Source: Patagioenas fasciata (taxonomy: Eukaryota). From it: a DNA stretch of 64,000 bases. This document shows, piece after piece, positions 4,343 to 39,096 of this stretch. The stretch is taken from contig NC_092556.1 in assembly GCF_037038585.1 (NCBI RefSeq), forward strand, positions 514,619 through 578,618, read 5' to 3'. The notes under the pieces were generated by a model that was not told the origin of the DNA, did no database searches, and saw only the letters and a list, made by a program, of their open reading frames with translations. The position numbers were made by a program, and so were the translations under genes. Each line of letters begins with the position of its first letter. Position 1 is the stretch's first letter.

Positions 4343-5092
4343 CTGGGGACAGGGTCACGGGCTCAGGGGTCACGGGGTCACTGGGGTCACGGGGTCACTG
4401 GGGTCACTGTGTCCCCATAACCCCATAAACACTTCAAACCCCATAACCCCCCATACCCCCCCACCCCCATAACCCCAATACCCCCATGACCCCATAGACC
4501 CCATAACCCCCCATACCCCCATGACCCCCATAACCCCCTATGACCCCCATACCCCCATACCCCCAACACCCCCCATACCCCCATGACCCCCATACCCCCA
4601 ACACCCCCCATACCCCCATGACCCCCATACCCCCAACACCCCCCATACCCCCATGCCCCCCATAACCCCCTATGACCCCCATACCCCCAATACCCCCATA
4701 CCCCCATGCCCCCCATAACCCCCTATGACCCCCATACCCCCAACACCCCCCATACCCCCATGACCCCCATAACCCCCTATGACCCCCATACCCCCAACAC
4801 CCCAATACCCCCCATACCCCCATGACCCCATAACCCCCTATGACCCCCATACCCCCATACCCCCATGACCCCCATAACCCCTATGACCCCCATACCCCCA
4901 ACACCCCAATACCCCCCATACCCCCATGACCCCATAACCCCCTATGACCCCCATACCCCCAACACCCCCCATACCCCCATGACCCCCATGACCCCTATGA
5001 CCCCCATACCCCCAACACCCCCCATACCCCCATGACCCCCATGACCCCCATGACCCCCATGACCCCGCGCCCCCCACGTCCCCCCCACTCAC

Positions 5093-5282
5093 GTATGCGG
5101 CGGGGGGGCAGGGCCGGGCGCACAGCAGCGCCAGCAGCAGGCAGGGGGCGGCCCCCAGCACCCCTCCCCCGCACAGCAGGGGGTCCCCCCGCGGGGTCAG
5201 GGGGCGGAGCTTGCGCGACAGCCCCGCCCCCAACCCCACCCCCAGCACCCCCGACACGCACGTCAGCAGCCCGAACAGCAGG
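5093..5282 (-). CDS. SPNS1: SPNS1 exon 8
   Basis: Acceptor cctttgcccccag|C. Encodes (S)[63 protein letters not shown]. Donor GCATAC|gtgagt. Matches human [39 protein letters not shown]... Confidence 0.85.
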
Positions 5283-6897
5283 CTGGGGGCAAAGGGCAAA
5301 GGTCAGGGGGGGTCATGGGGGTCCAGGGGGTTATGGGGGGTTATGGGGTCACGGGGTTATGGGGCTTATAGGGGGTTATAGGGGTCATGGGGGTTATGGA
5401 GGTCATGGGAGTCAGGGGGGTCATGGGGGTCATAGGGGTCGGGGGGTCATGGGGGTCATAGGGGGTCATGGGGATGTGGGGTTATGGGGTCATAGGGGGT
5501 TATGGGGGTCATGGGGGTCATAGGAGTCAGTGGGTCATGGGGGTCATAAGGGGTCATGGGGGTCATAGGGGGTCATAAGGGTCAGGGGGGTTATGGGGGT
5601 CATGGGGGTCAGGGGGTCATGGGGGTCAGGGGGTCATGGGGGTCATAGGGGGTCATGGGGGTCAGGGGGATGTGGGGTTATGGGGGTTATGGGGGTTATG
5701 GGGGTTATGGGGTCATGGGGATGGGGGTTATAGGGTCATGGGGTCATAGGGGTCACGGGTCACCCCATTATCCCAATGTCCCCATTGTCCCCATTGCCCC
5801 CATTGCCCCCATTAACCCCATTGTTCCCATTACCCCATCACCCCCATCACCCCATTGTCCCTGCTGCCCCCATTGTCCCCATTGACCCCATTATCTCAAT
5901 GTCCCCATTGCCCCCATTGTCCCCATCACCCCCATTATCCCCATCACCCCACTGTCCCCTTGACCCCCATTGTCCCCATTGCCTCCATTGGCCCCATTGG
6001 CCCGATTGTCCCATTAACCCATCATCCCCATTACCCCATTGCCCCCATTATCCCATTGCCCCCATTGTCCCATTGTCCCCATTACCCCAATGTCCCCATT
6101 GCTCCCATTGTCCCATTGCCCCCGTCACCCCCATCCCCCCATCACCCCCATTGTCCCCATCACCCCCATTGTCCCATCACCCCCATTGTCTCATCACCCC
6201 CATCACCCCCATTGTCCCCATCCCCCCCATCCCCCCCATTGTCCCCATCACCCCCATTGTCCCATTGTCCCCATCACCCCCATCACCCCCATTCCCCCAT
6301 CACCCCCATTGTCCCATCACCCCCATCGCCCCCATTGTCCCATCCCCCCCATCACCCCCATCCCCCCCATTGTCCCATCCCCCCCATCACCCCCATTGTC
6401 CCCATCCCCCCCATTGTCCCATCACCCCCATCCCCCCCATTCCCCCATCACCCCCATTGTCCCATCACCCCCATTGTCCCATCACCCCCATTGTCCCCAT
6501 CCCCCCATCACCCCCATCACCCCCATTGTCCCCATCCCCCCCATCCCCCCCATTGTCCCCATCACCCCCATTGTCCCATTGTCCCCATCACCCCCATCAC
6601 CCCCATTCCCCCATTGTCCCATTGTCCCATCACCCCCATTGTCCCATCACCCCCATTGTCCCCATCACCCCCATCACCCCCATTGTCCCATCCCCCCCAT
6701 CACCCCCATTGTCCCATTGTCCCCATCACCCCCATTGTCCCCATCCCCCCCATTGTCCCATCACCCCCATTCCCCCATCACCCCCATTGTCCCCATCCCC
6801 CCCATTGTCCCATCACCCCCATTCCCCCATCACCCCCATTGTCCCCATCCCCCCCATTGTCCCCATCCCCCCCATTGTCCCCCCCCCCCCGTGTCAC

Positions 6898-7053
6898 CTC
6901 TCGTCGCCGTGGCAGCGCGGCCCCCGCTGGCAGGGGGGCAGGGCCCCGGTGGCCACGCGGCAGCGGCGCAGGAACGCGGGGGCCCAGAGGGCGAGGGCCC
7001 CGGTGACAAAGGACACGGCGGTGAAGCCCAGCGAGGACAGCACCAGCGTGCGG
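6898..7053 (-). CDS. SPNS1: SPNS1 exon 7
   Basis: Acceptor ccgtgtcccag|C. Encodes (N)RTLVLSSLGFTAVSFVTGALALWAPAFLRRCRVATGALPPCQRGPRCHGDE(S). Donor GACGAGAG|gtgaca. Matches human NPSFVLSSLGFTAVAFVTGSLALWAPAFLLRSRVVLGETPPC. Confidence 0.85.
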
Positions 7054-9412
7054 CTGGGACACGGGGACACCCCCGTCACACCCTGGGGACACCCTGGGGA
7101 CACCCTGGGGACACCCTGGGGACACCCCCGTCACACCCTGGGGACACCCCCGTCACACCCTGGGGACACCCCCGGTGACAAAGGACACGGCGGTGAAGCC
7201 CAGCGAGGACAGCACCAGCGTGCGGCTGGGGACATGGGGACAGCCCCGTCACACCCTAGGGACACCCTGGGGACACCCTGGGGACATGGGGACACCCCTG
7301 TCACACCCCTGGGGACACCCTGGGGACACCCTGGGGACACCCCTGTCACACCCTGGGGACACCCTGGGGACACCCTGGGGACACCCCTGTCACACCCTGG
7401 GGACACCCTGGGGACACCCTGGGGACACCCCCGTCACACCCTGGGGACACCCTGGGGACACCCCCGTCACACCCTGGGGACACCCTGGGGACACCCCTGT
7501 CACACCCCATGGGACATGGGGACACCCCTGGGGACATGGGGACACCCCCTGGGGACACCAATGAAACCCTGGGGACACCGCATGGGACACGGGGACACCC
7601 CTGGGGACACCCCTGTCACACCCCATGGCACCCCATGGGACATGGGGACACCCCTGGGGACATGGGGACACCCCCAGGGACACCCCATGGGACTCGGGGA
7701 CACCCCATAGGGACACAGGGACACCCCCGGGGATGCCCCATTGCACCCCATGGGACACGAGGACACCCCCAGGGACAACCCTGGGGACATGGGGACACCC
7801 CATAGGGACACAGGGACACCCCCAGGGACACCCCATGGCACCCATGGGACACGGGGACACCCCTGGTGACACCCCATTGCACCCCATGGGACATGGGGAC
7901 ACCCCTGGGGACACCGCATGGCACCCCATGGGACACAGGGACACCCCATGGGACTCGGGGACACCCCTGGGGACACGGGGACACCCCTGGGGACACCAAT
8001 GAAACCCTGGGGGTGCCAGGTCTACCCCATGGGGACACCAGGTCTACCCAGGGGGACCTGTCCCCATGTCCCCCCATGTCCCCATGTCCCCCATGTCCCC
8101 CATTGTCCCCATATCCCCCAATCCCCCCATAGCCCCCAATCCCCCCATATCCCCATAGCCCCCAATGTCCTCACATCCCCATTGTCCCCATATCCCCCAA
8201 TGTCCCCATGTCCCCCCATAGTCCCCCATTGTCCCCGTATCCCCCAATATCCCCAATCCCCCCACATCCCCCCAATGTCCCCACATCCCCCCATGTCCCC
8301 CATTGTCCCCAATGTCCCCACATCCCCCCATGTCCCCCATTGTCCCCAATGTCCCCACATCCCCCCATGTCCCCCATTGTCCCCAATGTCCCCACATCCC
8401 CCCATGTCCCCATAGCCCCCAATGTCCCCATATCCCCCCATATCCCCAATGTCCCCAATGTCCCCCCATGTCCCCCAATCCCCCCATATCCCCCAATGTC
8501 CCCATGTCCCCCATTGTCCCCATGTCCCCATTATCCCCATAGCCCCCAATGTCCCCACATCCCCCCCTGTCCCCCATTGTCCCCATATCGCCTCATGTCC
8601 CCCTATCCCCCAATGTCCCCAATGTCCCCCATTGTCCCCATATCCCCCATTGTCCCCAATCCCCCCACATCCCCCATTGTCCCCATATCCCCCATTGTCC
8701 CCACATCCCCCCATGCCCCCCAATGTCCCCACACCCCCCAATGTCCCCCAATGTCCCCATTGTCCCCAATGTCCCCACACCCCCCAATGTCCCCATTGTC
8801 CCCATTGTCCCCATTGCCCCCATTGTCCCCAATGTCCCCAATGTCCCCAATGTCCCCATTGCCCCCATTGCCCCCAATGTCCCCAATGTCCCCATTGTCC
8901 CCAATGTCCCCAATGTCCCCACACCCCCCAATGTCCCCACACCCCCCATTGTCCCCAATGTCCCCATTGTCCCCAATGTCCCCACACCCCCCAATCCCCC
9001 CACATCCCCCAATGTCCCTCAATCCCCTCAATGTCCCCCATGTCCCCCATTGTCCCCAATCCCCCCATGCCCCCCATTGTCCCCACATCCCCCCATGCCC
9101 CCCATTGCCCCCATTGCCCCATTGCCCCCATTGTCCCCAATGTCCCCACACCTCCCAATGTCCCCATTGTCCCCACTGTCCCCACTGTCCCCAATGTCCC
9201 CATTGTCCCCAATGTCCCCAATGTCCCCAATGTCCCCCATTGTCCCCAATGTCCCCACACCCCCCAATGTCCCCATTGTCCCCACTGTCCCCACTGTCCC
9301 CAATGTCCCCATTGTCCCCGATGTCCCCAATGTCCCCACACCCCCCATTGCCCCCATTGTCCCCATTGTCCCCAATGTCCCCCAATGTCCCCAGTGTCCC
9401 CCCTGTCCTCAC

Positions 9413-9555: not shown

Positions 9556-10654
9556 CTGGGGACACGGGGGGGTCACATGGGGTCACATGGGGGGGTCACA
9601 TGGGGACGGGGGGGGCACGTGGGGGGGGGGCACGTGGGGGGGGGTCACCTGGGGACACGGGGGGGTCACCTGGGGTCACATGGGGGGGTCACATGGGGAC
9701 GGGGGGGGCACGTGGGGGGGGGTCACCTGGGGACACGGGGGGGTCACCTGGGGGGGTCACATGGGGACGGGGGGGGCACGTGGGGGGGTCACCTGGGTCA
9801 TCTGGGGACATGGGGGGGGCACGTGGGGTCACATGGGGGGGTCACATGGGGACGGGGGGGGCACGTGGGGGGGGGGTCACCTGGGGTCACCTGGGGACAC
9901 GGGGGGGGTCACATGGGGATGGGGGGGGCACGTGGGGGGGTCACCTGGGGTCACCTGGGGACATGGGGGGGGGCACGTGGGGTCACATGGGGGGGTCACC
10001 TGGGGCCACCTGGGGTCACCTGGGGACACGGGGGGGCACGTGGGGACGGGGGGGGCACGTGGGGGGGTCACCTGGGGTCATCTGGGGACATGGGGGGGGG
10101 CACGTGGGGTCACATGGGGGGGGTCACCTGGGGACATGGGGGGGTCACCTGGGGGCACCTGGGGATGGGGGGGGGGGGCACATGGGGGGGTCACCTGGGG
10201 TCACCTGGGGACATGGGGGGGCACGTGGGGGCACATGGGGACGGGGGGGGCACGTGGGGGGGGCACGTGGGGACTTGGCGGGGTCACCTGGGGTCACATG
10301 GGGACCCTGTTGAGGACACTGGGGGGGTTTGGGGACCCTGCTGGGGACACTGGGGACCCTTTTGGGGACATTGGGGGGGTTTGGGGACCCTGTTGGGGAC
10401 ACTGGGGACCCTTTTGGGGACATTGGGGGGGTTTGGGGACCCTGTTGGGGACACTGGGGGGTTTGGGGTCACTGTTGGGGACACTGATGGGGACACTGGG
10501 GACCCTGTTGGGGACACTGGGGGGGTTTGGGGACCCTGTTGGGGACCCTGTTGGGGTCACTGATGGGGACACTGGGGACACTGGGGGGGTTTGGGGACAC
10601 TGATGGGGACACTGGGGACATTGGGGCCACTGGGGCCGTGGGTCCCGGGCTCAC

Positions 10655-14882: not shown

Positions 14883-17300
14883 AGAATCCGTGGGTCAGAC
14901 CCACACGTGTGGGGCACGAACCCACCCAGCAGCCATGGGTCAGACCCACACGTGTGGGGCAGGAACCGACACTGAGAATCCATGGGTCAGACCCACACGT
15001 GTGGGGCACAAACCCACCCAGCAGCCATGGGTCAGACCCACACGTGTGGGGCAGGAACCCACCCAGCAGCCATGGGTCAGACCCACACGTGTGGGGCAGG
15101 AACCCACCCAGCAGCCATGGGTCAGACCCACACGTGTGGGGCAGGAACCCAAACCCAGCATCCATGGGTCAGACCCACACGTGTGGGGCAGGAACCCACC
15201 CAGCAGCCATGGGTCAGACCCACACGTGTGGGGCAGGAACCGACAGTGAGCAGCTATGGGTCAGACCCACACGTGTGGGGCAGGAACCCAAACCCAGCAT
15301 CTATGGGTCAGACCCACACGTGTGGGGCAGGAACCAACACTGAGAATCCATGGGTCAGACCCACACGTGTGGGGCAGGAACCCAAACCCAGCATCCATGG
15401 GTCAGACCCACACGTGTGGGGCAGGAACCCAAACCCAGCAGCCATGGGTCAGACCCACACGTGTGGGGCAGGAACCGACACTGAGAATCCATGGGTCAGA
15501 CCCACACGTGTGGGGCAGGAACCCAAACCCAGCATCCATGGGTCAGACCCACACGTGTGGGGCAGGAACCCACCCAGCATCTATGGGTCAGACCCACACA
15601 TGTGGGGCAGGAACCAACACTGAGAATCCATGGGTCAGACCCACACGTGTGGGGCAGGAACCCAAACCCAGCAGCCATGGGTCAGACCCACACGTGTGGG
15701 GCAGGAACCAACCCAGCAGCCATGGGTCAGACCCACACGTGTGGGGCAGGAACCCACCCAGCAGCCATGGGTCAGACCCACACGTGTGGGGCAGGAACCG
15801 ACAGTGAGCAGCTATGGGTCAGACCCACACGTGTGGGGCAGGAACCCAAACCCAGCATCCATGGGTCAGACCCACACGTGTGGGGCAGGAACCCAAACCC
15901 AGCATCCATGGGTCAGACCCACACGTGTGGGGCAGGAACCCAAACCCAGCAGCCATGGGTCAGACCCACACGTGTGGGGCAGGAACCGACACTGAGAATC
16001 CATGGGTCAGACCCACACGTGTGGGGCAGGAACCCAAACCCAGCATCCATGGGTCAGACCCACACGTGTGGGGCAGGAACCAACACTGAGAATCCATGGG
16101 TCAGACCCACACGTGTGGGGCACGAACCCACCCAGCAGCCATGGGTCAGACCCACACGTGTGGGGCAGGAACCCAAACCCAGCATCCATGGGTCAGACCC
16201 ACACGTGTGGGGCAGGAACCAAGACTGAGAATCCATGGGTCAGACCCACACGTGTGGGGCAGGAACCAACACTGAGAATCCATGGGTCAGACCCACACGT
16301 GTGGGGCAGGAACCGACACTGAGCAGCTATGGGTCAGACCCACACGTGTGGGGCAGCAACCCAAACCCAGCATCTATGGGTCAGACCCACACGTGTGGGG
16401 CAGGAACCCACCCAGCAGCCATGGGTCAGACCCACACGTGTGGGGCAGGAACCGACAGTGAGCAGCTATGGGTCAGACCCACACGTGTGGGGCAGGAACC
16501 CACCCAGCAGCCATGGGTCAGACCCACACGTGTGGGGCAGGAACCGACAGTGAGTAGCTATGGGTCAGACCCACACGTGTGGGGCAGGAACCCAAACCCA
16601 GCAGCCATGGGTCAGACCCACACGTGTGGGGCAGGAACCGACAGTGAGCAGCTATGGGTCAGACCCACACGTGTGGGGCAGGAACCCACCCAGCAGCCAT
16701 GGGTCAGACCCACACGTGTGGGGCAGGAACCCACCCAGCATCTATGGGTCAGACCCACACGTGTGGGGCAGGAACCCACCCAGCATCTATGGGTCAGACC
16801 CACACGTGTGGGGCAGGAACCGACAGTGAGCAGCTATGGGTCAGACCCACACGTGTGGGGCAGGAACCGACCCAGCAGCCATGGGTCAGACCCACACGTG
16901 TGGGGCAGGAACCCACCCAGCAGCCATGGGTCAGACCCACACATGTGGGGCAGGAACCAACACTGAGAATCCATGGGTCAGACCCACACGTGTGGGGCAG
17001 CAACCCAAACCCAGCATCTATGGGTCAGACCCACACATGTGGGGCAGGAACCAACACTGAGAATCCATGGGTCAGACCCACACGTGTGGGGCAGGAACCA
17101 ACCCAGCATCCATGGGTCAGACCCACACGTGTGGGGCAGGAACCAACACTGAGAGTGCGGGGGTCAGACCCACACGTGTGGGGCAGGAACCCACCCAGCA
17201 TCTATGGGTCAGACCCACACGTGTGGGGCAGGAACCCACCCAGCATCTATGGGTCAGACCCACACGTGTGGGGCAGGAACCAACACTGAGCAGCTACGGG
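14883..17300. repeat. 46-bp palindromic E-box satellite, ~52 copies (cccacacgtgtggggcaggaacccacccagcagccatgggtcagac), in SPNS1 intron 2
   Basis: Every unit contains the perfect 16-bp palindrome CCCCACACGTGTGGGG with a central CACGTG E-box. The array is followed at 17300-17620 by a related ~60-bp repeat carrying the same palindrome. Confidence 0.9.
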
Positions 17301-17619
17301 TCAGACCCACACGTGTGGGGCACTATGGGGCAGAGCTGTCTGCAGGAGCTCTATGGGGGTGATGTGTGGGTCAGCCCCACACGTGTGGGGCGCTATGGGG
17401 CAGAGCTGTCTGCAGGAGCTCTATGGGGGTGATGTGTGGGTCAGCCCCACACGTGTGGGGCGCTATGGGGCAGACCTGTCTGCAGGAGCTCTATGGGGGG
17501 GTGATGTGTGGGTCAGCCCCACACGTGTGGGGCGCTATGGGGCAGAGCTGTCTGCAGGAGCTCTATGGGGGGGTGATGTGTGGGTCAGCCCCACACGTGT
17601 GGGGCGCTATGGGGCAGAC

Positions 17620-17685
17620 CTGTCTGCAGGAGCCCGGATTTCCCGTCATCGATGCCGAAATAATCCTCAATATCCGGGAGAACAC
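17620..17685 (-). CDS. SPNS1: SPNS1 exon 2
   Basis: Acceptor gtctgtgccccccag|GT. Encodes (G)VLPDIEDYFGIDDGKSGLLQT(V). Donor CAGACAG|gtctgc (weak). Matches human GVLPDIEQFFNIGDSSSGLIQT. Confidence 0.8.
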
Positions 17686-18463
17686 CTGGGGGGCACAGAC
17701 CCATAAGTGACCCATAAGTGACCCATAAGTGACCCATAAGTGACCCATAAGTGACCCACAGCGACCCATAGAGACCCATAACCGACCAAAAATTGACCCA
17801 CAAGTGACCCATGAATCTCCCATAGTGACCCCCTGACCCATAAGTGACCCACAGCAACCCCCTAACTGACCCATAGTGACCCATAAGAGACCCATAGTGA
17901 CCCATAAGTAACCCAAAGTGACCCATAACTGACCCATAAGTGACCCATAAGTGACCCAAAGTGACCCATAGCAACCCCATAAGTGACACATAGCGACCCA
18001 TAAGTGACCCATAAGTGACCCAAAGTGACCCATAGCAACCCCATAACTGACCCATAGCAACCCCATAAGTGACCCATAGAGACCCATAAGTGACCCCATA
18101 GCAACCCCATAAGTGACCCATAGTGACCCATAAGTGACCCAAAGTGACCCCATAAGCGACCCATAAGTGACCCATAAGTGACCCATAACTGGCCCTTAGT
18201 GACCCATAAGTGACCTATAGAGACCCCCGTAACTGACCCATAGAGACCCATAAGTGACCCCGTTTTGCCCCCCCTGCCCCACATCTCCCCCCACATCTCC
18301 CCACACCCCGCCCCCCATCTGCCCCATATCTGCCCCACATCCCACCCCACATCTCCCCCATTCTCTCCCCATATCCCACCCCATTTACTCCCCACATCTC
18401 CCCACACCCCGCCCCACACCCCGACCCCCACATCTCCCCACATCCTGCCCCACATCTCCCCAC

Positions 18464-18659
18464 CAGCCAGTGTGAACCGGTCCATGTAGTTGAGCAGGTT
18501 GACGTAGCACAGCACGGCCAGCGTGCGCCGGGGCGCCGTGGGGCCGCTATGGGGCGCTGTGGGGCCGCTATGGGGCGCCGTGGGGCTGGGGGGGGCGCTG
18601 TGGGGCAGCCCCTCCCCCCCCGTGTCGTCCGCGCGGTGAAGGAGCGGCCCCGACGCCAT
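18464..18659 (-). CDS. SPNS1: SPNS1 exon 1 (start codon)
   Basis: ATG is the reverse complement of plus 18657-18659, in the context ccccATGG. Encodes MASGPLLHRADDTGGEGLPHSAPPSPTAPHSGPTAPHSGPTAPRRTLAVLCYVNLLNYMDRFTLA(G). Donor CTGGCTG|gtgggg. Matches human ...RSALIVAVLCYINLLNYMDRFTVAG. There is no in-frame stop upstream, so the start codon is inferred from homology and context. Confidence 0.7.
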
Positions 18660-19430
18660 GGGGCAGCCTGGGGGGAGACCCACAGGGACCACGGGGTGAC
18701 CCATAGGGACCCATAGGGACCCACAGAGTGACCCATAGGGACCATGGGGTGACCCATAGGGACCCATAGGGACCCATAGAGACCATGGAGTGACCCATAG
18801 GGACCATGGGGTGACCCACAGGGACCCATAGAGTGACCCATAGGGACCATGGGGTGACCCACAGGGACCCATAGAGTGACCCATAGGGACCATGGGGTGA
18901 CCCATAGGGACCCATAGGGACCCATAGGGACCATGGGGTGACCCATAGGGATACATAGGGACCCATAGAGTGACCCATAGGGACCATGGGGTGACCCATA
19001 GGGACCCATAGAGACCATGGAGTGACCCATAGGGACCCATAGAGTGACCCATAGGGACCATGGGGTGACCCATAGGGACCCATAAAGACCCACAGAGTTA
19101 CCCATAGGGACCCATAGGGACCCATAGAGTGACCCATAGGGACCATGGGGTGACCCACAGGGACACATAGGGACCCATAGGGACCCACAGAGTTACCCAT
19201 AGGGACCCATAGGGACCCATAGAGACCATAGAGACCCATAGGGACCATAGAGACCCACAGAGACCCATAGGGACCCATAGAGACCCATAGAGTGACCCAT
19301 AGAGACCGATAGAGACCCATAGAGACCCATAGAGTGACCCATAGAGACCGATAGAGACCCATAGAGACCCATAGAGTGACCCATAGAGACCCATAGAGAC
19401 CATAGAGACTCTAGAGACCCAAATTCCCCC
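18660..19430. repeat. Tandem satellite (gggacccatagggaccatggggtgacccatag family) between the SPNS1 start codon and the promoter
   Basis: Direct reading. It probably lies within the SPNS1 5'UTR or an intron, because promoter-like unique sequence only begins at ~19430. Confidence 0.8.
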
Positions 19431-19558
19431 CCCCTTCCCCCGCCCCTCCCCCCACCCCTCTCCCCCCCTCCTCTCCCCCATTTTTGCCCCAAACCCGCGG
19501 TTTTCACCCCAATTTTCCCCCTTTCCCGCCCTCACCGGCCGCCCCGGCCCAGCCGCGG

Positions 19559-19606
19559 CTCACGTGACCTCGCGCTCACGTGACCACCCCCCCTCCACAC
19601 GTGACC
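19559..19606. promoter_or_regulatory. Cluster of three CACGTG E-boxes (two are TCACGTGAC CLEAR-like motifs)
   Basis: gctCACGTGAcctcgcgctCACGTGAccaccccccctccaCACGTGAccgc. The lysosomal CLEAR consensus GTCACGTGAC is matched 9/10 by the first two. Confidence 0.55.
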
Positions 19607-19869
19607 GCCGCTTCCGAGAAGAAGCCGGAAGTGGCGTCCACTCCCCCCCCCCCCCCCCCGCCGCTTTACGAGAGAAATGGTGGCGATTTGGGGCCAAATT
19701 CGGGCCGTTCTGCCCCAAAATGCGACGGGGGGAGGGGAAACAATGGGGGAAATTGGCGGGAAATTCACCAGAGCTGCCTAAAAGAGCCCAAATGGGTCCC
19801 CCCCGAACTCCTGGGTCCGTCCCTCCCCCCGCCCCCCACCGCCGCCCCCGTCCATGGGGCGGGAGGAGG

Positions 19870-20200
19870 CGGGAGAACCAATGGGGGTGGAGGGGGCGGG
19901 GCGAGCGGCGCCTATGAGCCAATGGGAAGCGAGCGGGGGGGCGGGGGAAGCACCGGGGTCAACGGGGAGCGCGGCTGAGCCAATAGGAAGCGAGCGGGCG
20001 GGGCGAACCGCTCCGTGAACCAATGGGAAGCGAGTGGGCGGGGCGAGCTGGCTGTTTCACCGGGGAGCGAGTGGGCGGGGCTCGCGGCGCCGCTGAACCA
20101 ATGGGAACCGAGCGTGCGGGACGCGCGGCGCCCTGAGCCAATAGGGAGGGAGTAGGGGGGGGAGCGGCGGCGCTGAACCAATGGGGATGAAGCGGGGGGG
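19870..20200. repeat. Tandem ~45-60 bp promoter repeat, seven units of CCAAT box + GC box (gagCCAATgggaagcgagcGGGCGGGGCg)
   Basis: CCAATGGG or CCAATAGG occurs at ~19878, 19917, 19978, 20019, 20099, 20138 and 20178, each followed by gaagcgagcgggcggggcg-like sequence. The array lies immediately upstream of the INO80E ATG. Confidence 0.7.
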
Positions 20201-20238
20201 GCTCCCGGCACTTCCGTGAAGGAGCCGGAAGTGCGGCC

Positions 20239-20322
20239 ATGAACGGGGCGGGCGAGGTGGACGGCGGGGGCTACAAACGGCGCTACCGGGCCCTCAAGCG
20301 GCGCCTCAAGCTGCTGCTCTAC
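20239..20322 (+). CDS. INO80E: INO80E (INO80 complex subunit E) exon 1 (start codon)
   Basis: ATG at 20239. Encodes MNGAGEVDGGGYKRRYRALKRRLKLLLY. Donor CTCTAC|gtgagg. Matches human INO80E [27 protein letters not shown]. Confidence 0.85.
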
Positions 20323-20929
20323 GTGAGGGAAAGGGCGGGAAAGGGGGGGGAGGGGGGGCTTGGGGGAGGGGTGGGGGGGAACCCAGAGTGCGGGGGGGGA
20401 TGGGGGCATTGGGGGTTCTGACCCATAAGTGGAGCCATACGTGGCCCCATAGACCCATAAGTGGCCCCATAGATACATAAGTGGCCCCATAGATACATAA
20501 GTGGCCCCATAGACCCATAAGTGGCCCCATAGACTCATAAATGGACCCATAAGTGGCCCCATAGACCCATAAGTGGACCCATGGACCCATAAGTGGCCCC
20601 ATAAGTGGCCCCATAGACCCATAAGTGGACCCATGGACCCAGAACTGGACCCATAGACCCATAAATGGCCCCATAAGTGGATCTTTAGACCCAGAACCTA
20701 CCCCATAGACCCATAAGTGGCCCCATAAGTGGCCCCATAGACCCATAAATGGACCCTTAGACTCGTAAGTGGCCCCATAAGTGGCCCCATAAGTGGACCC
20801 TTAGGCCCATAAGTGGCCCCATAGACCCATAAGTGGCCCCATAAGTGGCCCCATAGACCCATAAATGGACCCATGGACCCATAAGTGGCCCCATAAGTGG
20901 CCCCATAGACCCAGAACTGGACCCATTGT

Positions 20930-22380
20930 GACTTTTGGGTCTGAAATTGGGGATTTTGGGGCCTAAAATGGGGATTTTTGGGCTTAAAATTGTGAATTTG
21001 GGGCCTGAAATTGGGGATTTTGGGGCCTAAAGTGGGGATTTTGGGTCCTAAAATTGTGACTTTGGGGCCTAAAATGGGGATTTTTGGGGCCTAAAATGGG
21101 GAATTTTGTGGCAAAATTGGGGATTTTGGGGCCTAAAATGGGGACTTTTGGGCCTAAAATGGGGAATTTGAGGCCTAAATTGGGTCTTTTTGGATCAAAT
21201 TTGGTGGCTTTTGGGTCAAAATTGGGCCTTTTTGGGTCTGAAATGGAGCATTTTGGGGCCTGGAATTGAGATTTTGGGGTGAAATTGGGGTTTTTGGGGT
21301 GAAATTGGGGTTTTGGGGGTGAAATTGGGGTTTTTGGGGGTGAAATTGGGGTTTTTTGGGGTGAAATTGGGGTTTTTGGGGGTGAAATTGGGGTTTTGGG
21401 GGGTGAAATTGGGGTTTTTTGGGCCTAAAATGGGGATTTTTGGGGTGAAATTGGGGTTTTTGGGGCCTAAAATGGGGATTTTTGGGGGTGAAATTGGGGT
21501 TTTTGGGGTGAAATTGGGGTTTTTGGGGTGAAATTGGGGATTTTGGGGGTGAAATTGGGGTTTTTGGGGGTGAAATTGGGGCTTTTTGGGCCTAAAATGG
21601 GGATTTTTGGGGTGAAATTGGGGTTTTTGGGGCCTAAAATGGGGATTTTTGGGGTGAAATTGGGGATTTTGGGGGTGAAATTGGGGTTTTTGGGGTGAAA
21701 TTGGGGATTTTGGGGTGAAATTGGGGATTTTTGGGGGTGAAATTGGGTTTTTTTGGGGTGAAATTGGGGATTTTGGGGGTGAAATTGGGGTTTTTGGGGG
21801 TGAAATTGGGGCTTTTTGGGCCTAAAATGGGGATTTTTGGGGTGAAATTGGGGTTTTTGGGGCCTAAAATGGGGATTTTTGGGGTGAAATTGGGGATTTT
21901 GGGGGTGAAATTGGGGTTTTTGGGGGTGAAATTGGGGATTTTTGGGGTGAAATTGGGGTTTTTTGGGGGTGAAATTGGGGTTTTTGGGGGTGAAATTGGG
22001 GATTTTTGGGGTGAAATTGGGGATTTTTGGGGGTGAAATTTGGGTTTTTTGGGGTGGAATTGGGGATTTTTGGGGTGAAATTGGGGTTTTTTGGGGGTGA
22101 AATTGGGGTTTTTGGGGGTGAAATTGGGGATTTTTGGGGTGAAATTGGGGATTTTTGGGGGTGAAATTTGGGTTTTTTGGGGTGAAATTGGGGTTTTTGG
22201 GGGTGAAATTGGGGCTTGTTGGGCCTAAAATGGGGATTTTTGGGGTGAAATTGGGGTTTTTTGGGGTGAAATTGGGGATTTTTGGGGGTGAAATTGGGGC
22301 TTGTTGGGCCTAAAATGGGGATTTTGGGGGTGAAATTGGGGTTTTTGGGGTCGTTTCTGGGCGTTTTTCCTCCCGTTTTG
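20930..22380. repeat. Tandem repeats (gggattttggggcctaaaatgggg / ggtgaaattggggtttttgggg family) in INO80E intron 1
   Basis: Direct reading. It is preceded at 20400-20930 by a ccataagtggccccatagaccc family. Confidence 0.85.
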
Positions 22381-22409
22381 CCCAAAATCGCCGTTTTTCG
22401 CCCCGAAAG

Positions 22410-22480
22410 GAGCAGGAATGCTTCCAGGACGAGCTCCGCAGGGCCCAGCGCAAACTGCTCAAGGTCTCGCGCGACAAAAG
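22410..22480 (+). CDS. INO80E: INO80E exon 2
   Basis: Acceptor gccgtttttcgccccgaaag|GAG. Encodes [23 protein letters not shown](S). Donor AAAAG|gtcccg (weak). Matches human [24 protein letters not shown]. Confidence 0.8.
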
Positions 22481-23162
22481 GTCCCGAAACCCCAGAAAAT
22501 CAGCCCAAAATGCACCCGCCCCGCACTCCTGGGTCCCCTGGGGCACTCCTGGGTCCCTTGGGGCACTCCTGGGTCCCCCCCGAACTCCTGGGTCCCTCCC
22601 CGAACTCCTGGGTCCCTCCCGAACTCCTGGGTCCCTCCCCGAACTCCTGGGTCCCTCCCGAACTCCTGGGTCCCTCAGAACTCCTGGGTCCCTTGGGGCA
22701 CTCCTGGGTCCCTCCCCGCACTCCTGGGTCCCTTGGGGCACTCCTGGGTCCCTCCCAAACTCCTGGGTCCCTCCCCGAACTCCTGGGTCCCTCCCCAAAC
22801 TCCTGGGTCCCTCCCGAACTCCTGGGTCCCTCCCCGAACTCCTGGGTCCCCCCCCGAACTCCTGGGTCCCCCCCGAACTCCTGGGTCCCTTGGGGCACTC
22901 CTGGGTCCCTCCCGAACTCCTGGGTCCCTCCCCGAACTCCTGGGTCCCTCCTGAACTCCTGGGTCCCTCCCGCACTCCTGGGTCCCTCCCGAACTCCTGG
23001 GTCCCCCCCGAACTCCTGGGTCCCCTGGGGCACTCCTGGGTCCCTCCCGAACTCCTGTGTCCCCCCCGAACTCCTGGGTCCCTCCCCGAACTCCTGGGTC
23101 CCTCCCGAACTCCTGGGTCCCTCCCGGACGCCTGGGTCCCTCACACCCCCTTTCCCCCCCAG

Positions 23163-23215
23163 TTATTTGCTGGACCGGTTGCTGCTCTATGAGAACGTGG
23201 ATGACGAGACCACAG
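23163..23215 (+). CDS. INO80E: INO80E exon 3
   Basis: Acceptor ccctttcccccccag|T. Encodes (S)YLLDRLLLYENVDDETT(G). Donor CACAG|gtaagg. Matches human SFLLDRLLQYENVDEDSS. Confidence 0.85.
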
Positions 23216-23835
23216 GTAAGGGGGAGGGGGGGCACTTATGGGGCTGGGGGGGGCACTTGGGGGTCACTATGGGGCAGCTATGGGGCACTTATGGGTCAGT
23301 TTGGGGTCACTATGGGGAAGTTGGGGTTCAACGTGGGGCACTGGGGGGGTCCCTATGGGGCAATTTGGGGTCGATTTCAGGCACTTATGGGGCTGGGGGG
23401 GACTTGGGGGTCGCTATGGGTCGCTATGGGGCAGTTATGGGTCAGTTTGGGGCCAATATGGGGAAGTTGGGGGTTAATATGGGGCACTGGGGGGGTCACT
23501 ATGAGGCAGCTATGGGTGGATTTCAGGCACTTATGGGGCTGGGGGGGACTTGGGGGTCGCTATGGGGCAGTTATGGGGCATTTTGGGGCCACTTGGGGGT
23601 CACTATGGGGAAGTGGGGGGGGTCGCTATGGGGCAATTTGGGGTCAATTTCAGGCACTTATGGGGCTGGGGGGCACTTGGGGTTCACTATGGGGCAGATA
23701 TGGGTCACTATGGGGCAGTTATGGGTCAATTGGGGGTCACCGTGGGGCAGTTGTGGGGCTGGGGAAGACACTTGTGGGTCGCTGTGGGTCACGGGGGGTT
23801 GGTCATTGGGTCCCCATTGGCTCCTCCCCCCATAG

Positions 23836-26554: not shown

Positions 26555-26644
26555 CCGAGGGGGGGGGAGGGGCCGGGGGGGGAGGGGAGCGGGGACGACG
26601 CCCTGGACGGGGACGACGAGCTGGTGATTGACATCCCCGAGTGA
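26555..26644 (+). CDS. INO80E: INO80E terminal coding segment (conserved C-terminus, stop TGA 26642-26644); 5' boundary ambiguous
   Basis: Encodes PRGGEGPGGEGSGDDALDGDDELVIDIPE*, matching the human C-terminus SGDDALDGDDDLVIDIPE. With acceptor gctgctgag|CCG (AG at 26553-26554) this segment is in frame with exon 6. The stronger acceptor cccttatgtccccccag| at 26476-26477 would instead start the exon at 26478, 2 nt out of frame with this C-terminus. Confidence 0.5.
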   Translation, partial: PRGGEGPGGEGSGDDALDGDDELVIDIPE

Positions 26645-32160: not shown

Positions 32161-32183
32161 ACATCCCGCCCCACAGATCCCAC

Positions 32184-32349
32184 CTTTGCTGCAGAGCTCG
32201 CAGTGGTGCGGGGCCGCGTGCCCCTTGACGTGGTCGCCGACGTAGGCGGCGCTGAGCAGTTTCCCGCACACGTGGCACGGGACCTTCTCCTCGTGCCGCA
32301 CGGCGTGGGCGCGCAGCCGGTCCTTGGTGGCGAACGCCGCCTCGCACGT
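32184..32349 (-). CDS. MAZ: MAZ zinc-finger exon (ZF5-ZF6 region)
   Basis: Acceptor ccccccatgtgcag|ACG. Encodes TCEAAFATKDRLRAHAVRHEEKVPCHVCGKLLSAAYVGDHVKGHAAPHHCELCSK(G). Donor CAAAG|gtggga. Matches human KCEAAFATKDRLRAHTVRHEEKVPCHVCGKMLSSAYISDHMKVHSQGPHHVCELCNKG. Confidence 0.85.
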
Positions 32350-38407: not shown

Positions 38408-39096
38408 CTGGAGAAGCTCTTCCCGCAGTGGCTGCACCCGTAGGGCTTGTGCACGGCCCCGTCGTGCGAGCGCACGTGGTGGCTCATCCTGTCCTTACGC
38501 TTGAAGCGCTGCTGGCACACGGGGCACTGGTGGGGCTTCTCGTCCGAGTGGGACAACTGGTGCCTCTTCAGGTGGTAGACGTCCCGAAACGCCTTCCCGC
38601 ACATCTCGCACGCGTGGTTCTTCCTCCCGCGTCCCCCTTTATTCCCTCCCCCCGCCGCCCCCGTCCCCTCCAAGGCGGCGGCCGAGACGCTCAACAGGCT
38701 CAAGGGGACCATGGTTGGCATCTTCATGGCGGCGTTGCCGGCCCCCTGGGGGACGTTGGTGGCCTTGTGGGTGGCCTGGTGGCGTCGGAGGTTGTAGCCG
38801 TTCTTGAACTCCTTGGCGCAAAGGGCGCAGACGTGGGGGCCTTTGGATTTGGATTTGCGGGGGGGGTCCGGGGTGGGGGTGGTGGGGGGTTGGGGTTGGG
38901 CGGGGGGTTGGGGTGGTGGGGGTGGGGGTGGGGGTGGGGGAGGGGAAGGGCCCGGCGGGGGTTTGAGGGCGGCGGCGTCGACGGTGGGGGCGGGGGAGGG
39001 GGTGGGGGAGGGGGAGGGGGGGGCGGGGGGGAGGACGGGGAGGAGGTCGACGGGGAGGGGGGAGGGGTCGGGGGGGGGGGGAGGGGCGGCGGCGGC
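38408..39096 (-). CDS. MAZ: MAZ large exon (proline-rich N-terminal region plus ZF1-ZF3)
   Basis: Candidate acceptor tttcccccccacag|GCC at 39097-39098, with an in-frame TAA 8 codons upstream. Encodes [228 protein letters not shown](R). Donor TCTCCAG|gtgggt. Matches human MAZ ...PLQVDLLPVL...STVDTAALKQPP...KSKGPYICALCAKEFKNGYNLRRHEAIH...AMKMPTMVPLSLLS...HACEMCGKAFRDVYHLNRHKLSHSDEKPYQCPVCQQRFKRKDRMSYHVRSHDGAVHKPYNCSHCGKSFSR. The first coding exon (start ATG) was not located. Confidence 0.75.

Follow-up and report, generated by a model that had tools for sequence, protein, structure and literature searches.

The 817-bp CpG island separating SPNS1 from INO80E in Patagioenas fasciata is probably made of two promoters of independent ancestry, placed back to back and joined by a lineage-specific rearrangement. 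In the window, by which we mean the whole 64,000-nucleotide stretch analysed, the first of the two (about 19536-19830, minus strand) would comprise the SPNS1 promoter with exon 1, and the second (about 19857-20238, plus strand) the INO80E promoter. The rearrangement would have taken place in this dove's lineage and joined the two modules near 19831-19857, so that MYLPF was displaced as the neighbour of SPNS1 and PAGR1 as that of INO80E. The outcome would be a head-to-head pair whose putative transcription start sites (TSSs) fall within the distance used to define bidirectional promoters.

Locus layout and the CpG island

SPNS1 (minus strand) and INO80E (plus strand) form a head-to-head pair. 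The first coding exon of SPNS1 (18462..18667, minus strand; exon 2 in the model proposed here) was placed by tblastn to SPNS1, by protein identity and by its acceptor context. It encodes MASGPLLHRADD...NYMDRFTLAG from a start codon at 18659..18657 and follows the acceptor tctccccccAG/GCTGCCCC, whose context is that of the exon-2 start in bird mRNA contigs. INO80E exon 1 (20239..20322, plus strand; MNGAGEVDGGGYKRRYRALKRRLKLLLY) starts with the ATG at 20239-20241 and is followed by the donor GTGAGG; further exons lie at 22410-22478 and from 23161 onwards, and the last exon ends at 26644. Both gene names proposed in the first-pass annotation are correct: the assembled SPNS1 protein has 92% identity to Patagioenas SPNS1, and INO80E matches PF24237 (Pfam) and is closest to parrot INO80E (88%). 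Rfam and tRNA scans of 17000-23500 gave no matches, and an entropy-filtered scan for open reading frames over 26-64 kb detected MAZ-like exons only.

The two ATGs, announced as about 1.6 kb apart on opposite strands, are separated by 1,580 bp (18659, minus strand, to 20239, plus strand), and the roughly 800 bp of unique promoter-like sequence reported between them correspond to a non-repetitive segment of 817 bp (19422-20238) with minisatellites on either side. This segment has a GC content of 0.70 and a CpG observed/expected ratio of 0.77, against 0-0.15 in the flanking minisatellites, and across it the GC skew switches from -0.48 (19350-19649) to +0.40 (20100-20399). A motif scan of the 817 bp found no TATAWA and no NRF1, YY1 or ZNF143 sites. 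Bidirectional promoters are described as having head-to-head TSSs less than 1 kb apart, as CpG-rich and TATA-poor, and as enriched in GABPA, NRF1, NF-Y and YY1 sites (PMC3082894). A CpG island, the lack of a TATA box and a mirrored base composition are all found at 19422-20238, which by its composition is a CpG-island promoter region.

Motif counts in the island were compared with 5,000 dinucleotide shuffles of the same 817 bp. CACGTG is present three times (shuffled mean 0.05, P<2e-4), CCGGAAGT twice (0.05, P=0.001), plus-strand CCAAT eight times (0.84, P<2e-4) and GGGCGGGGC four times (0.31, P=6e-4), the CCAAT and GC-box counts being non-independent because the array units are copies of each other. 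The motifs of the island are real and far more numerous than chance would give. Island-only shuffles were adopted because intronic minisatellites distort counts over the whole window; shuffles of the entire window (CACGTG, RRCCAATSR) proved a misleading null, since 66 of its 84 CACGTG copies are in intronic minisatellites and CCAAT is not enriched window-wide. The three copies of the island are in unique sequence.

It is very improbable that these clusters are by-products of GC-rich micro-duplication with no regulatory role. The region readily undergoes tandem duplication, motifs multiplied in this way are not independent counts, and the CCAAT/GC units and even the E-boxes (spaced by 16 and 21 bp) resemble local duplications. 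However, in pigeon alignments the motifs are invariant while the spacers are not, the same motif classes stand at orthologous positions in birds, alligator, turtle and macaque even though the surrounding sequence has been entirely replaced, and the flanking minisatellites are CpG-depleted relative to the island.

Non-coding exon 1 of SPNS1

Alignment with Columba, Caloenas, Grus, Struthio and the mRNA contig L010 places a putative non-coding exon 1 of SPNS1 at 19536..19616 (minus strand), with all three E-boxes inside it. Its 5' end is approximate: it was taken from the homologous bird mRNA that reaches furthest 5' while remaining colinear, and that mRNA begins in the CGGAAG ETS site. Bird mRNA 5' ends put the probable TSS near 19616. 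Transcription would start at or just upstream of the ETS/GC-box site and the transcript would cross a short exon with three T-flanked GTCACGTG(A/G) E-boxes, to be spliced as GCCG/GTGAGG ... CCCCCCAG/GCTGCCCCATG over an 868-nt minisatellite-bearing intron. This predicted 5'UTR intron 1 (18668..19535, minus strand, GTGAGG...CCCCCCAG) is delimited by the conserved donor, the bird mRNA junction and TRF, which reports within it a 720-bp minisatellite (18698-19421) with a 10-11-bp unit, GACCCATAGG.

The donor GT is at the identical aligned column in Columba, Caloenas, Grus and Struthio, and bird mRNA leaves genomic sequence precisely there. Nine bird RNA-seq contigs join '...GGTCACGTG..GGTCACGTG..GCCGGGGGCGGCG' directly to 'GCCGAGGCAGCCCCATG' at the conserved genomic GT, the exceptions being L012, with a different 5' end, and L018, with an alternative junction. 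The unspliced leader would contain 60 upstream ATGs and the spliced one none. By homology to bird mRNA, SPNS1 has a 5'UTR intron. An alternative in which the 720-bp minisatellite belongs to an unspliced 5'UTR was rejected, given those 60 ATGs, the conservation of the splice sites and the junction found in bird mRNA.

The ATG-to-ATG distance of 1.6 kb is misleading because the E-boxes are in non-coding exon 1 and the minisatellite in the 5'UTR intron. Since the latter is spliced out, and with an INO80E TSS that we infer between the last CCAAT (20178) and the ATG (20239), no more than some 60 bp from the start codon, the distance between TSSs would be about 0.6 kb.

Upstream of SPNS1 the promoter flank (19634..19831, minus strand) is homologous to the upstream sequence of SPNS1 in Columba livia and Caloenas (blastn; window 19418-19831 aligned to L009 6138-5710 and window 19418-19763 to L004 8653-8274). 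The flank contains a C17 run at 19643-19659. Two minisatellite families that are expanded in the other pigeons have one seed each here (about 19740-19770 and 19793-19829).

The E-box cluster of SPNS1

Three T-flanked E-boxes occupy 19560..19605, TCACGTGAC at 19560-19568 and at 19576-19584 and ACACGTGAC at 19597-19605. Their CACGTG cores at 19561, 19577 and 19598 span 43 bp, in agreement with the earlier claim of three CACGTG boxes within 48 bp. Read in the SPNS1 sense the boxes are GTCACGTGAG, GTCACGTGAG and GTCACGTGTG, and they match the CLEAR motif GTCACGTGAC (PMC9562866, PMC11864625) at 9/10, 9/10 and 8/10 positions. The claim that two of them match the CLEAR element holds as a likeness, both TCACGTGAC boxes reaching 9/10, but the perfect 10-mer is found in none of the window's three E-boxes.

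All three boxes are kept in the alignment with Columba and Caloenas, each of the three pigeons having three copies of GTCACGTG in the same orientation at the SPNS1 5' end. Same-orientation clusters are present at this position in Grus (five copies), Struthio (five) and Alligator (six), and the Macaca SPNS1 5' end has one or two copies (one GTCACGTG, plus GTCACATGAC). The perfect palindrome GTCACGTGAC is found in only three boxes across the archosaur loci, in Grus and Struthio. The E-boxes are very probably functional elements of SPNS1 and may constitute the conserved regulatory core of its promoter.

T-flanked E-box half-sites disfavour MYC/MAX, and such a half-site is present in every box, which makes MYC/MAX a disfavoured candidate. 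The boxes would rather be bound by T-flank-preferring bHLH-Zip factors, either MiT/TFE (TFEB/TFE3) or USF1/2 or both, and binding of MiT/TFE would link SPNS1 to the lysosomal CLEAR programme. By sequence, TFEB is not distinguishable from USF, TFE3, MITF or BHLHE40. CLEAR genes are recognised by GTCACGTGAC-type E-boxes near the TSS and by a product of lysosome or autophagy. Here three such boxes lie within the putative exon 1 and within about 80 nt of the probable SPNS1 TSS, and the product is of the lysosomal kind: the earlier remark that SPNS1 is a lysosomal transporter is borne out in that the protein is the SPNS1 orthologue, which PMC12404768 describes as a lysosomal lysophospholipid transporter. 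CLEAR/TFEB control of SPNS1 is plausible.

It is quite possible, if rather on the doubtful side, that the boxes are instead constitutive USF1/2 (or BHLHE40, MAX) housekeeping sites and not TFEB/TFE3-responsive CLEAR elements. The recurrent GGTCACGTGR is the USF consensus, the perfect GTCACGTGAC is limited to the Grus and Struthio boxes and is missing in the window, NF-Y/USF co-occurrence is common at promoters (PMC4889920), and our literature search found no statement of SPNS1 as a TFEB/CLEAR target, only co-mentions or reference-list entries. On the other hand, several T-flanked E-boxes in tandem, no more than about 100 bp from the TSS of a gene for a lysosomal membrane protein and found in the birds, alligator and macaque sampled, are the pattern described for CLEAR genes, and two of the window's boxes carry TCACGTGA on both flanks. 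The USF and CLEAR readings are moreover compatible, given that the factors are competitors for one set of sites.

The CCAAT/GC array of INO80E

Repeat and motif scans, together with cross-species comparison, delimit an array at 19857..20205 (plus strand) that comprises some 8.5 units, each about 40 bp long. It has seven plus-strand CCAAT boxes (19878, 19919, 19980, 20020, 20098, 20138 and 20178) with spacings of 41, 61, 40, 78, 40 and 40, the two long gaps holding degenerate CCAAT-less units at about 19957 and 20058. The NF-Y flank RRCCAATSR fits five of the seven boxes, and the other two read RRCCAATAG. The final box is 61 bp before the INO80E ATG, comparable to -56 in parrot and -69 in goose; an RRCCAATSR-type CCAAT within some 60-100 bp of the start is, as far as sequence goes, the pattern of NF-Y promoters. 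While a GGGCGG core is present in four of the seven CCAAT units, the four exact copies of GGGCGGGGC are in only three of them and in one CCAAT-less unit, with GGGCGGGGG in one further unit, and the three units nearest INO80E have degenerate G-runs only. The units are 60-82% alike, and TRF reports only 20084-20201 within the array (period 40, 3 copies, 70% matches). Where seven tandem units of 45-60 bp, each with CCAAT plus an Sp1 site, had been described, the seven CCAAT boxes stand, but the period is about 40 bp and GGGCGGGGC is in three of the seven. The promoter would be composed of the NF-Y-type boxes, interleaved Sp1-type GC boxes and then an inverted ETS pair.

The comparison of INO80E promoters took in goose, parrot and turtle, and no mammalian INO80E promoter. 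Multi-CCAAT arrays in INO80E orientation are present upstream of the ATG in all three, the box nearest the ATG lying at -56 to -109, and the number of CCAAT boxes is seven in the dove, four in parrot, four (plus one degenerate) in goose and four in turtle. The turtle array consists of four 55-57-bp units that are 100% identical, by which they are a recent duplication. Similarity of CCAAT units is 0.73 within species and 0.67 between species, a slight excess only. Head-to-tail units varying between genomes, as in a promoter VNTR, are observed here between species, and the suggestion that copy number changes by unequal exchange fits these differences among lineages. The array may expand and contract via tandem duplication.

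ETS pairs

Two inverted ETS pairs of the form CTTCCG-N8-CCGGAAGTG are present, one proximal to SPNS1 (19605..19633, with CTTCCG at 19611-19616 and CCGGAAGTG at 19625-19633) and one proximal to INO80E (20205..20233, with CTTCCG at 20211-20216 and CCGGAAGTG at 20225-20233). Two head-to-head pairs had indeed been noted, one abutting the INO80E ATG; the second stops 5 nt before it. In a repeat search the pairs emerged as two copies of a 29-nt cassette, 25/29 identical and exactly 600 bp apart; none of 300 shuffles reached 24/29.

CCGGAAG does not vary between the window and Columba, Caloenas, Grus or Struthio, and the mRNA contig begins inside it; ACTTCCGG is kept in all three pigeons. The spacer of the pair is 8 nt in both window copies versus 21 nt in the other pigeons. 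The INO80E-proximal pair is absent from goose and turtle, and parrot has only GGCCGGAG there. Two CGGAAG cores lie close together, an arrangement permitting a GABP alpha2-beta2 tetramer. The pairs fit GABPA, and other ETS factors (ELK, ELF) are also candidates.

Synteny and the junction

The modules were compared with nine other loci, the pigeon-family comparison covering three loci only. In the rock pigeon (Columba livia) and the Nicobar pigeon (Caloenas) SPNS1 faces MYLPF: the module of ETS site and GTCACGTG boxes is found with SPNS1, MYLPF exon 1 lies upstream and INO80E is absent. In goose and parrot the order is PAGR1(+) INO80E(+), with MAZ(-) downstream found in goose only, and in turtle INO80E faces HIRIP3 across a CCAAT array. 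MAZ(-) still lies downstream of INO80E in the window, and therefore only the upstream side of INO80E has changed. Columba, Caloenas, Grus, goose, parrot and turtle all lack the SPNS1-INO80E pairing, so that the conserved pairing looked for in bidirectional promoters is not found here. As SPNS1 and INO80E have other neighbours elsewhere, the pairing in the window is derived, and on the loci compared it is lineage-specific.

Homology to the pigeon SPNS1 loci stops at 19831, while the CCAAT/GC array and the homology to sequence upstream of INO80E in goose, parrot and turtle start at about 19857-19971. These limits place the putative rearrangement breakpoint between SPNS1-linked and INO80E-linked sequence at 19832..19856, a resolution of about 25 bp. 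Of the single bidirectional promoter proposed by the first-pass annotation, the head-to-head pair on a CpG island remains, but the island comprises two separable modules, each accompanying its own gene elsewhere.

One integrated promoter, in which E-boxes, ETS and CCAAT/Sp1 sites jointly drive and co-regulate both genes, seems to us unlikely. In its favour, the genes have one CpG island in common, less than 1 kb probably separates their TSSs, bidirectional promoters typically show such a set of motifs, transcription in both directions is reported for GABP-type sites (PMC3082894), and the same 29-nt ETS cassette stands at both ends, which could mean exchange of sequence since the fusion. Yet in related species each module accompanies its own gene while the other module is absent; each therefore suffices on its own there, and the pairing is of recent date. 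In addition, the modules lie about 250 bp from one another and no common element is found between them, and there is no evident reason to co-regulate a lysosomal transporter and a chromatin-remodeller subunit.

An assembly mis-join of two loci on a minisatellite-rich microchromosome is less probable still. Two other pigeon assemblies put MYLPF beside SPNS1, minisatellite arrays are classic points of mis-assembly, and the junction adjoins a CCCGAACTCCTGGGTCC unit, arrays of which are found in INO80E intron 2 in the window and by the SPNS1 promoter of Columba and Caloenas. Nevertheless the sequence at the junction is unique, has no N run and contains only about 1.5 repeat units, 19400-20300 has no gap or long array, and the window is contiguous through many far longer arrays, as in a long-read assembly. 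A local rearrangement is furthermore plausible given that SPNS1, MYLPF, INO80E, PAGR1 and MAZ all correspond to genes which we take to be on human chromosome 16p11.2.

Two promoters joined by rearrangement thus remain our preferred reading, and to it an extension may be added only speculatively: after a recent rearrangement on a minisatellite-rich dove microchromosome had joined the CLEAR-type SPNS1 and the NF-Y-array INO80E promoters within about 25 bp, the 29-nt ETS cassette would have been copied between TSS-proximal sites. If true, this would be the birth of a bidirectional promoter followed by homogenisation, caught in the act.

Significance

As a promoter the island is ordinary, its motif set being that of the textbook CpG-island bidirectional promoter, a known class. 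What it offers beyond this is, on the SPNS1 side, a tandem GTCACGTG cluster in a non-coding first exon as a conserved feature of birds and alligator, with one or two copies in macaque, and with it a testable link of a lysosomal lysophospholipid transporter to MiT/TFE (or USF) control. On the INO80E side the CCAAT/GC array may exemplify a regulatory-site array turning over through tandem duplication on GC-rich avian microchromosomes. The locus as a whole would be a natural experiment: other birds have the modules separately, this dove has them fused, and a comparison could address if proximity by itself is enough to bring about co-regulation.

Comparison with known systems

With CLEAR-network promoters the SPNS1 module shares a lysosomal gene and three tandem T-flanked E-boxes, matching at 8-9/10, near the probable TSS; unlike them it has no perfect 10-mer.

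Arrays of spaced CCAAT boxes are occupied by NF-Y in company with Sp1/Sp2 (PMC4889920), and the mouse Mrps12/Sarsm bidirectional promoter is, as cited in PMC3082894, regulated by a CCAAT-box array (Zanotto et al.). The INO80E module resembles such promoters in its same-strand CCAAT boxes, NF-Y-type flanks, intervening GC boxes and a last box about 60 bp from the gene start. It differs in that its seven boxes follow a 40-bp period in a degenerate tandem repeat, whereas distances of 24-27 and 36 bp are those reported as preferred between CCAAT boxes.

Human INO80E forms a head-to-head overlapping pair with HIRIP3, for which PMC11890862 emphasises RARG, RNA duplexes and R-loops; neither CCAAT nor NF-Y appears in that paper. 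INO80E in the window is likewise head-to-head over a CpG-rich region, and turtle retains HIRIP3 as the partner; in the window, in contrast, the partner is SPNS1 and no evidence of transcript overlap was seen.

In contrast to vertebrate CpG-island bidirectional promoters, the island shows no NRF1, YY1 or ZNF143 sites, and its motifs are split into two halves instead of being shared. The gene pair is also non-conserved and would have been assembled recently from promoters with other neighbours elsewhere. The locus is like them in its head-to-head coding genes, TATA-less island, mirrored GC skew and ETS, CCAAT and GC boxes.

Genes and sequence setting

The window is vertebrate DNA of high GC content, packed with minisatellites. 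By translated searches, SPNS1 occupies the minus strand, from a start codon at 18659..18657 to a last exon near 135. INO80E is read from the plus strand; its start codon is at 20239, and its exons include 20239-20322, 22410-22478, one from 23161 and one ending at 26644. The assembled SPNS1 protein shares 92% identity with Patagioenas fasciata SPNS1, compared with 86% for Caloenas nicobarica and 83% for Columba livia. The N-terminus of INO80E matches INO80E proteins only (Pfam PF24237), the best being 88% to a parrot. Downstream of INO80E are found MAZ-type C2H2 zinc-finger exons on the minus strand (32182-32346 and ~38464-38619).

Two SPNS1 coding exons, ..LVLSSLGFTAVSFVTG.. and ..LGDxGSPYLLGMV.., have partial extra copies within repeat arrays of the adjacent introns (7171-7221 vs 6900-7049; 2593-2631 vs 2760-2876). 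In the SPNS1 intronic minisatellites at 14900-17630 the palindrome CCCACACGTGTGGGG occurs in the units of 45-47 bp as well as in those of 72 bp, and these arrays account for 66 of the 84 CACGTG sites of the window, the boxes there being without T flanks. The Caloenas SPNS1 locus has 14 CACGTG in 37 kb, and both Caloenas and Columba are far below the density of the window.

The intergenic CpG island

The ~800 bp of unique promoter-like sequence noticed in the first-pass annotation was confirmed as a non-repetitive block of 817 bp (19422-20238) with a GC content of 0.70 and a CpG observed/expected ratio of 0.77, i.e. a CpG island, the ratio in the flanks being 0-0.15. It has a minisatellite of GACCCATAGG (18698-19421) on the SPNS1 side and a related one (20420-20907) on the INO80E side. 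GC skew changes across the block from -0.48 to +0.40, the pattern expected of divergent transcription. Relative to 5,000 dinucleotide shuffles of its sequence, every motif class is over-represented, including CACGTG (3 vs 0.05 expected) and plus-strand CCAAT (8 vs 0.84 expected). Overall, this is a CpG-island promoter region of an ordinary kind.

The motifs described earlier are real, with two small errors. The three clustered CACGTG boxes span 43 bp and two of them read TCACGTGAC; both inverted ETS pairs have the form CTTCCG-N8-CCGGAAGTG, the second stopping 5 nt before the INO80E ATG; and the seven plus-strand CCAAT boxes between the genes are present. The errors concern the CCAAT units, whose period is ~40 bp (spacings 41, 61, 40, 78, 40, 40) instead of 45-60 bp, and the GGGCGGGGC box, which had been assigned to every unit and is found as an exact copy in three of the seven. 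A fourth exact copy sits in a CCAAT-less unit, and the two long gaps are occupied by two degenerate units without CCAAT.

The SPNS1 half

Homology to sequence upstream of SPNS1 covers 19418-19831 in Columba and 19418-19763 in Caloenas. Aligning the three pigeons shows variable spacers but no change in the three E-boxes, in either ETS core or in a GT located 35-40 nt past the last E-box. An E-box cluster is present at the SPNS1 5' end in every archosaur locus compared, all boxes reading GTCACGTG(N) in SPNS1 sense, with three boxes in each of the three pigeons, five in the crane Grus, five in the ostrich Struthio and six in alligator; the Macaca 5' end has one GGTCACGTG and one GTCACATGAC variant. 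Cluster and ATG are ~60 bp apart in alligator and as much as ~2.3 kb in ostrich, owing to the expansion of different minisatellites in the interval.

The mRNA evidence comes from nine RNA-seq contigs of bird SPNS1 (Logan assemblies), in which a 5'UTR of the form '...GAAGGGGCGG..GGTCACGTG..GGTCACGTG..GCCGGGGGCGGCG' is fused directly to 'GCCGAGGCAGCCCCATG'. Aligned to genomic sequence, the mRNA diverges exactly at the conserved GT, which shows that bird SPNS1 has a non-coding exon 1 holding the E-boxes and, after it, a 5'UTR intron. By homology, exon 1 of the window ends with base 19536 at the minus-strand donor GCCG|GTGAGG, and the next exon begins with base 18667 at the acceptor CCCCCCAG|GCTGCCCCATG. 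The resulting intron of 868 nt encloses the entire 18698-19421 minisatellite, and the leader would contain 60 upstream ATGs if unspliced and none if spliced. Given this structure, the SPNS1 TSS would lie near 19616-19640, ~0.95 kb from the SPNS1 ATG.

Just upstream of this putative start, in SPNS1 sense, is a run of C17 (19643-19659); assemblies are likely to misjudge its length, which probably also varies within populations. Two of the nine contigs have deviant 5' ends: L012 starts with ~85 nt of unrelated sequence, and in L018 a different E-box-containing segment (GTCACGTGAGG) is spliced to exon 2. Alternative first exons or start sites are possible in both.

The INO80E half

From ~19860-19971 onward the window aligns with the INO80E loci of parrot, goose and turtle, all three of which carry multiple plus-strand CCAAT boxes immediately 5' of the ATG. 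Swift parrot has four (-178 to -56), swan goose four plus one CCAAC (-251 to -69) with interspersed GGGGCGGGGC boxes, and flatback turtle four tandem units with a period of 55-57 bp in the HIRIP3/INO80E intergenic region (9690-9940 of the turtle locus). With arrays in three birds (dove, parrot and goose) and a turtle, the multi-CCAAT, GC-box promoter is an old trait of INO80E. The number of copies (seven in dove, four in the others, besides the goose CCAAC) changes by local tandem duplication, which supports the earlier idea of unequal exchange. The closest match of each dove unit is another dove unit, and the 40-nt cores compared among the turtle units are 100% identical, which points to a very recent tandem duplication of a promoter element there.

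Origin of the gene pair

Elsewhere the two genes have other neighbours. In Caloenas, the sequence past the SPNS1 promoter leads through expanded minisatellites to the promoter and first exon of MYLPF; in Columba livia similar expansions are followed, on the opposite strand, by a gene called as EF-hand (MYLPF-like). In Grus, NFATC2IP is positioned between MYLPF and SPNS1, and the NFATC2IP-SPNS1 order is also that of human. PAGR1 lies upstream of INO80E in the same orientation (+) in goose and parrot, MAZ(-) follows INO80E(+) in goose as in the window, and HIRIP3 faces INO80E in turtle, as it does in human (PMC11890862). Only the sides upstream of INO80E and upstream of SPNS1 have changed.

Crane (8790-9170 of that locus) and ostrich (7050-7600) have arrays of CRE-like palindromes, GTGACGTCAC / GTGACATCAC, throughout the stretch from the NFATC2IP stop codon to the SPNS1 promoter. 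Such arrays are absent at the pigeon SPNS1 loci, where NFATC2IP is also missing from that place.

Within the island the SPNS1-linked and INO80E-linked homology tracts meet at ~19831-19857, giving the two halves a modular ancestry. Together with the differing neighbours, this argues that the island is a fusion of two promoters and the pairing derived, and speaks against an anciently shared regulatory unit. Less probably, the junction is an assembly mis-join: 1.5 units of the CCCGAACTCCTGGGTCC minisatellite family adjoin it (19793-19829), and further members of this family make up an array in INO80E intron 2 (22515-23000+) and, next to the SPNS1 promoter, arrays of kb scale in Columba (4700-5600 of its locus) and Caloenas (5377-6276). 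The family could be the substrate of rearrangement or of mis-assembly; the junction itself, however, is unique sequence with no gaps.

The ETS pairs belong to two copies of a 29-nt cassette (19605-19633 and 20205-20233), identical at 25 of 29 positions and exactly 600 bp apart; none of 300 shuffles reaches 24/29. The spacer within the pair is 8 nt in both copies vs 21 nt at SPNS1 of Columba and Caloenas, and the cassette is absent at INO80E of goose and turtle. This suggests a lineage-specific duplication or gene conversion, and sequence may have been exchanged once the two promoters were fused. A reading in which a bidirectional pair arose recently and the cassette was copied afterwards is, taken as a whole, unlikely.

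Predicted regulation and comparison with bidirectional promoters

In the regulation that we infer from these motifs, ETS/GABP-type and GC-box sites would position SPNS1 initiation, and MiT/TFE and/or USF would bind the three T-flanked E-boxes just downstream of the start. NF-Y and Sp1-family factors would bind along the CCAAT/GC array, and the INO80E transcription that they drive would begin no more than ~60 bp from the start codon. SPNS1 encodes a lysosomal lysophospholipid transporter (PMC12404768), and the E-boxes match the CLEAR motif GTCACGTGAC (PMC9562866, PMC11864625) at 9, 9 and 8 of 10 positions. The recurrent GGTCACGTGR fits USF equally well, so MiT/TFE and USF are indistinguishable by sequence, and our literature search found no paper naming SPNS1 as a TFEB target. 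The proposed lysosomal link gains support from the deep conservation of the cluster.

Of the compact bidirectional promoter originally proposed, the CpG-island promoter region stands. The locus is more aptly seen as a pair of independent promoters that were recently set back to back, the putative SPNS1 start lying across a minisatellite-bearing 5'UTR intron. Bidirectional promoters have head-to-head TSSs <1 kb apart and a CpG-rich, TATA-poor sequence of mirror base composition; sites for GABPA, NRF1, NF-Y and YY1 are enriched in them, and a mouse example run by a CCAAT-box array is already described (PMC3082894). NF-Y commonly binds spaced CCAAT-box arrays along with Sp1/Sp2 (PMC4889920). Unlike such promoters, the SPNS1/INO80E locus does not join a conserved pair of genes; like them in composition and motifs, and with predicted TSSs that would also lie at such a distance, it joins an already known promoter class.
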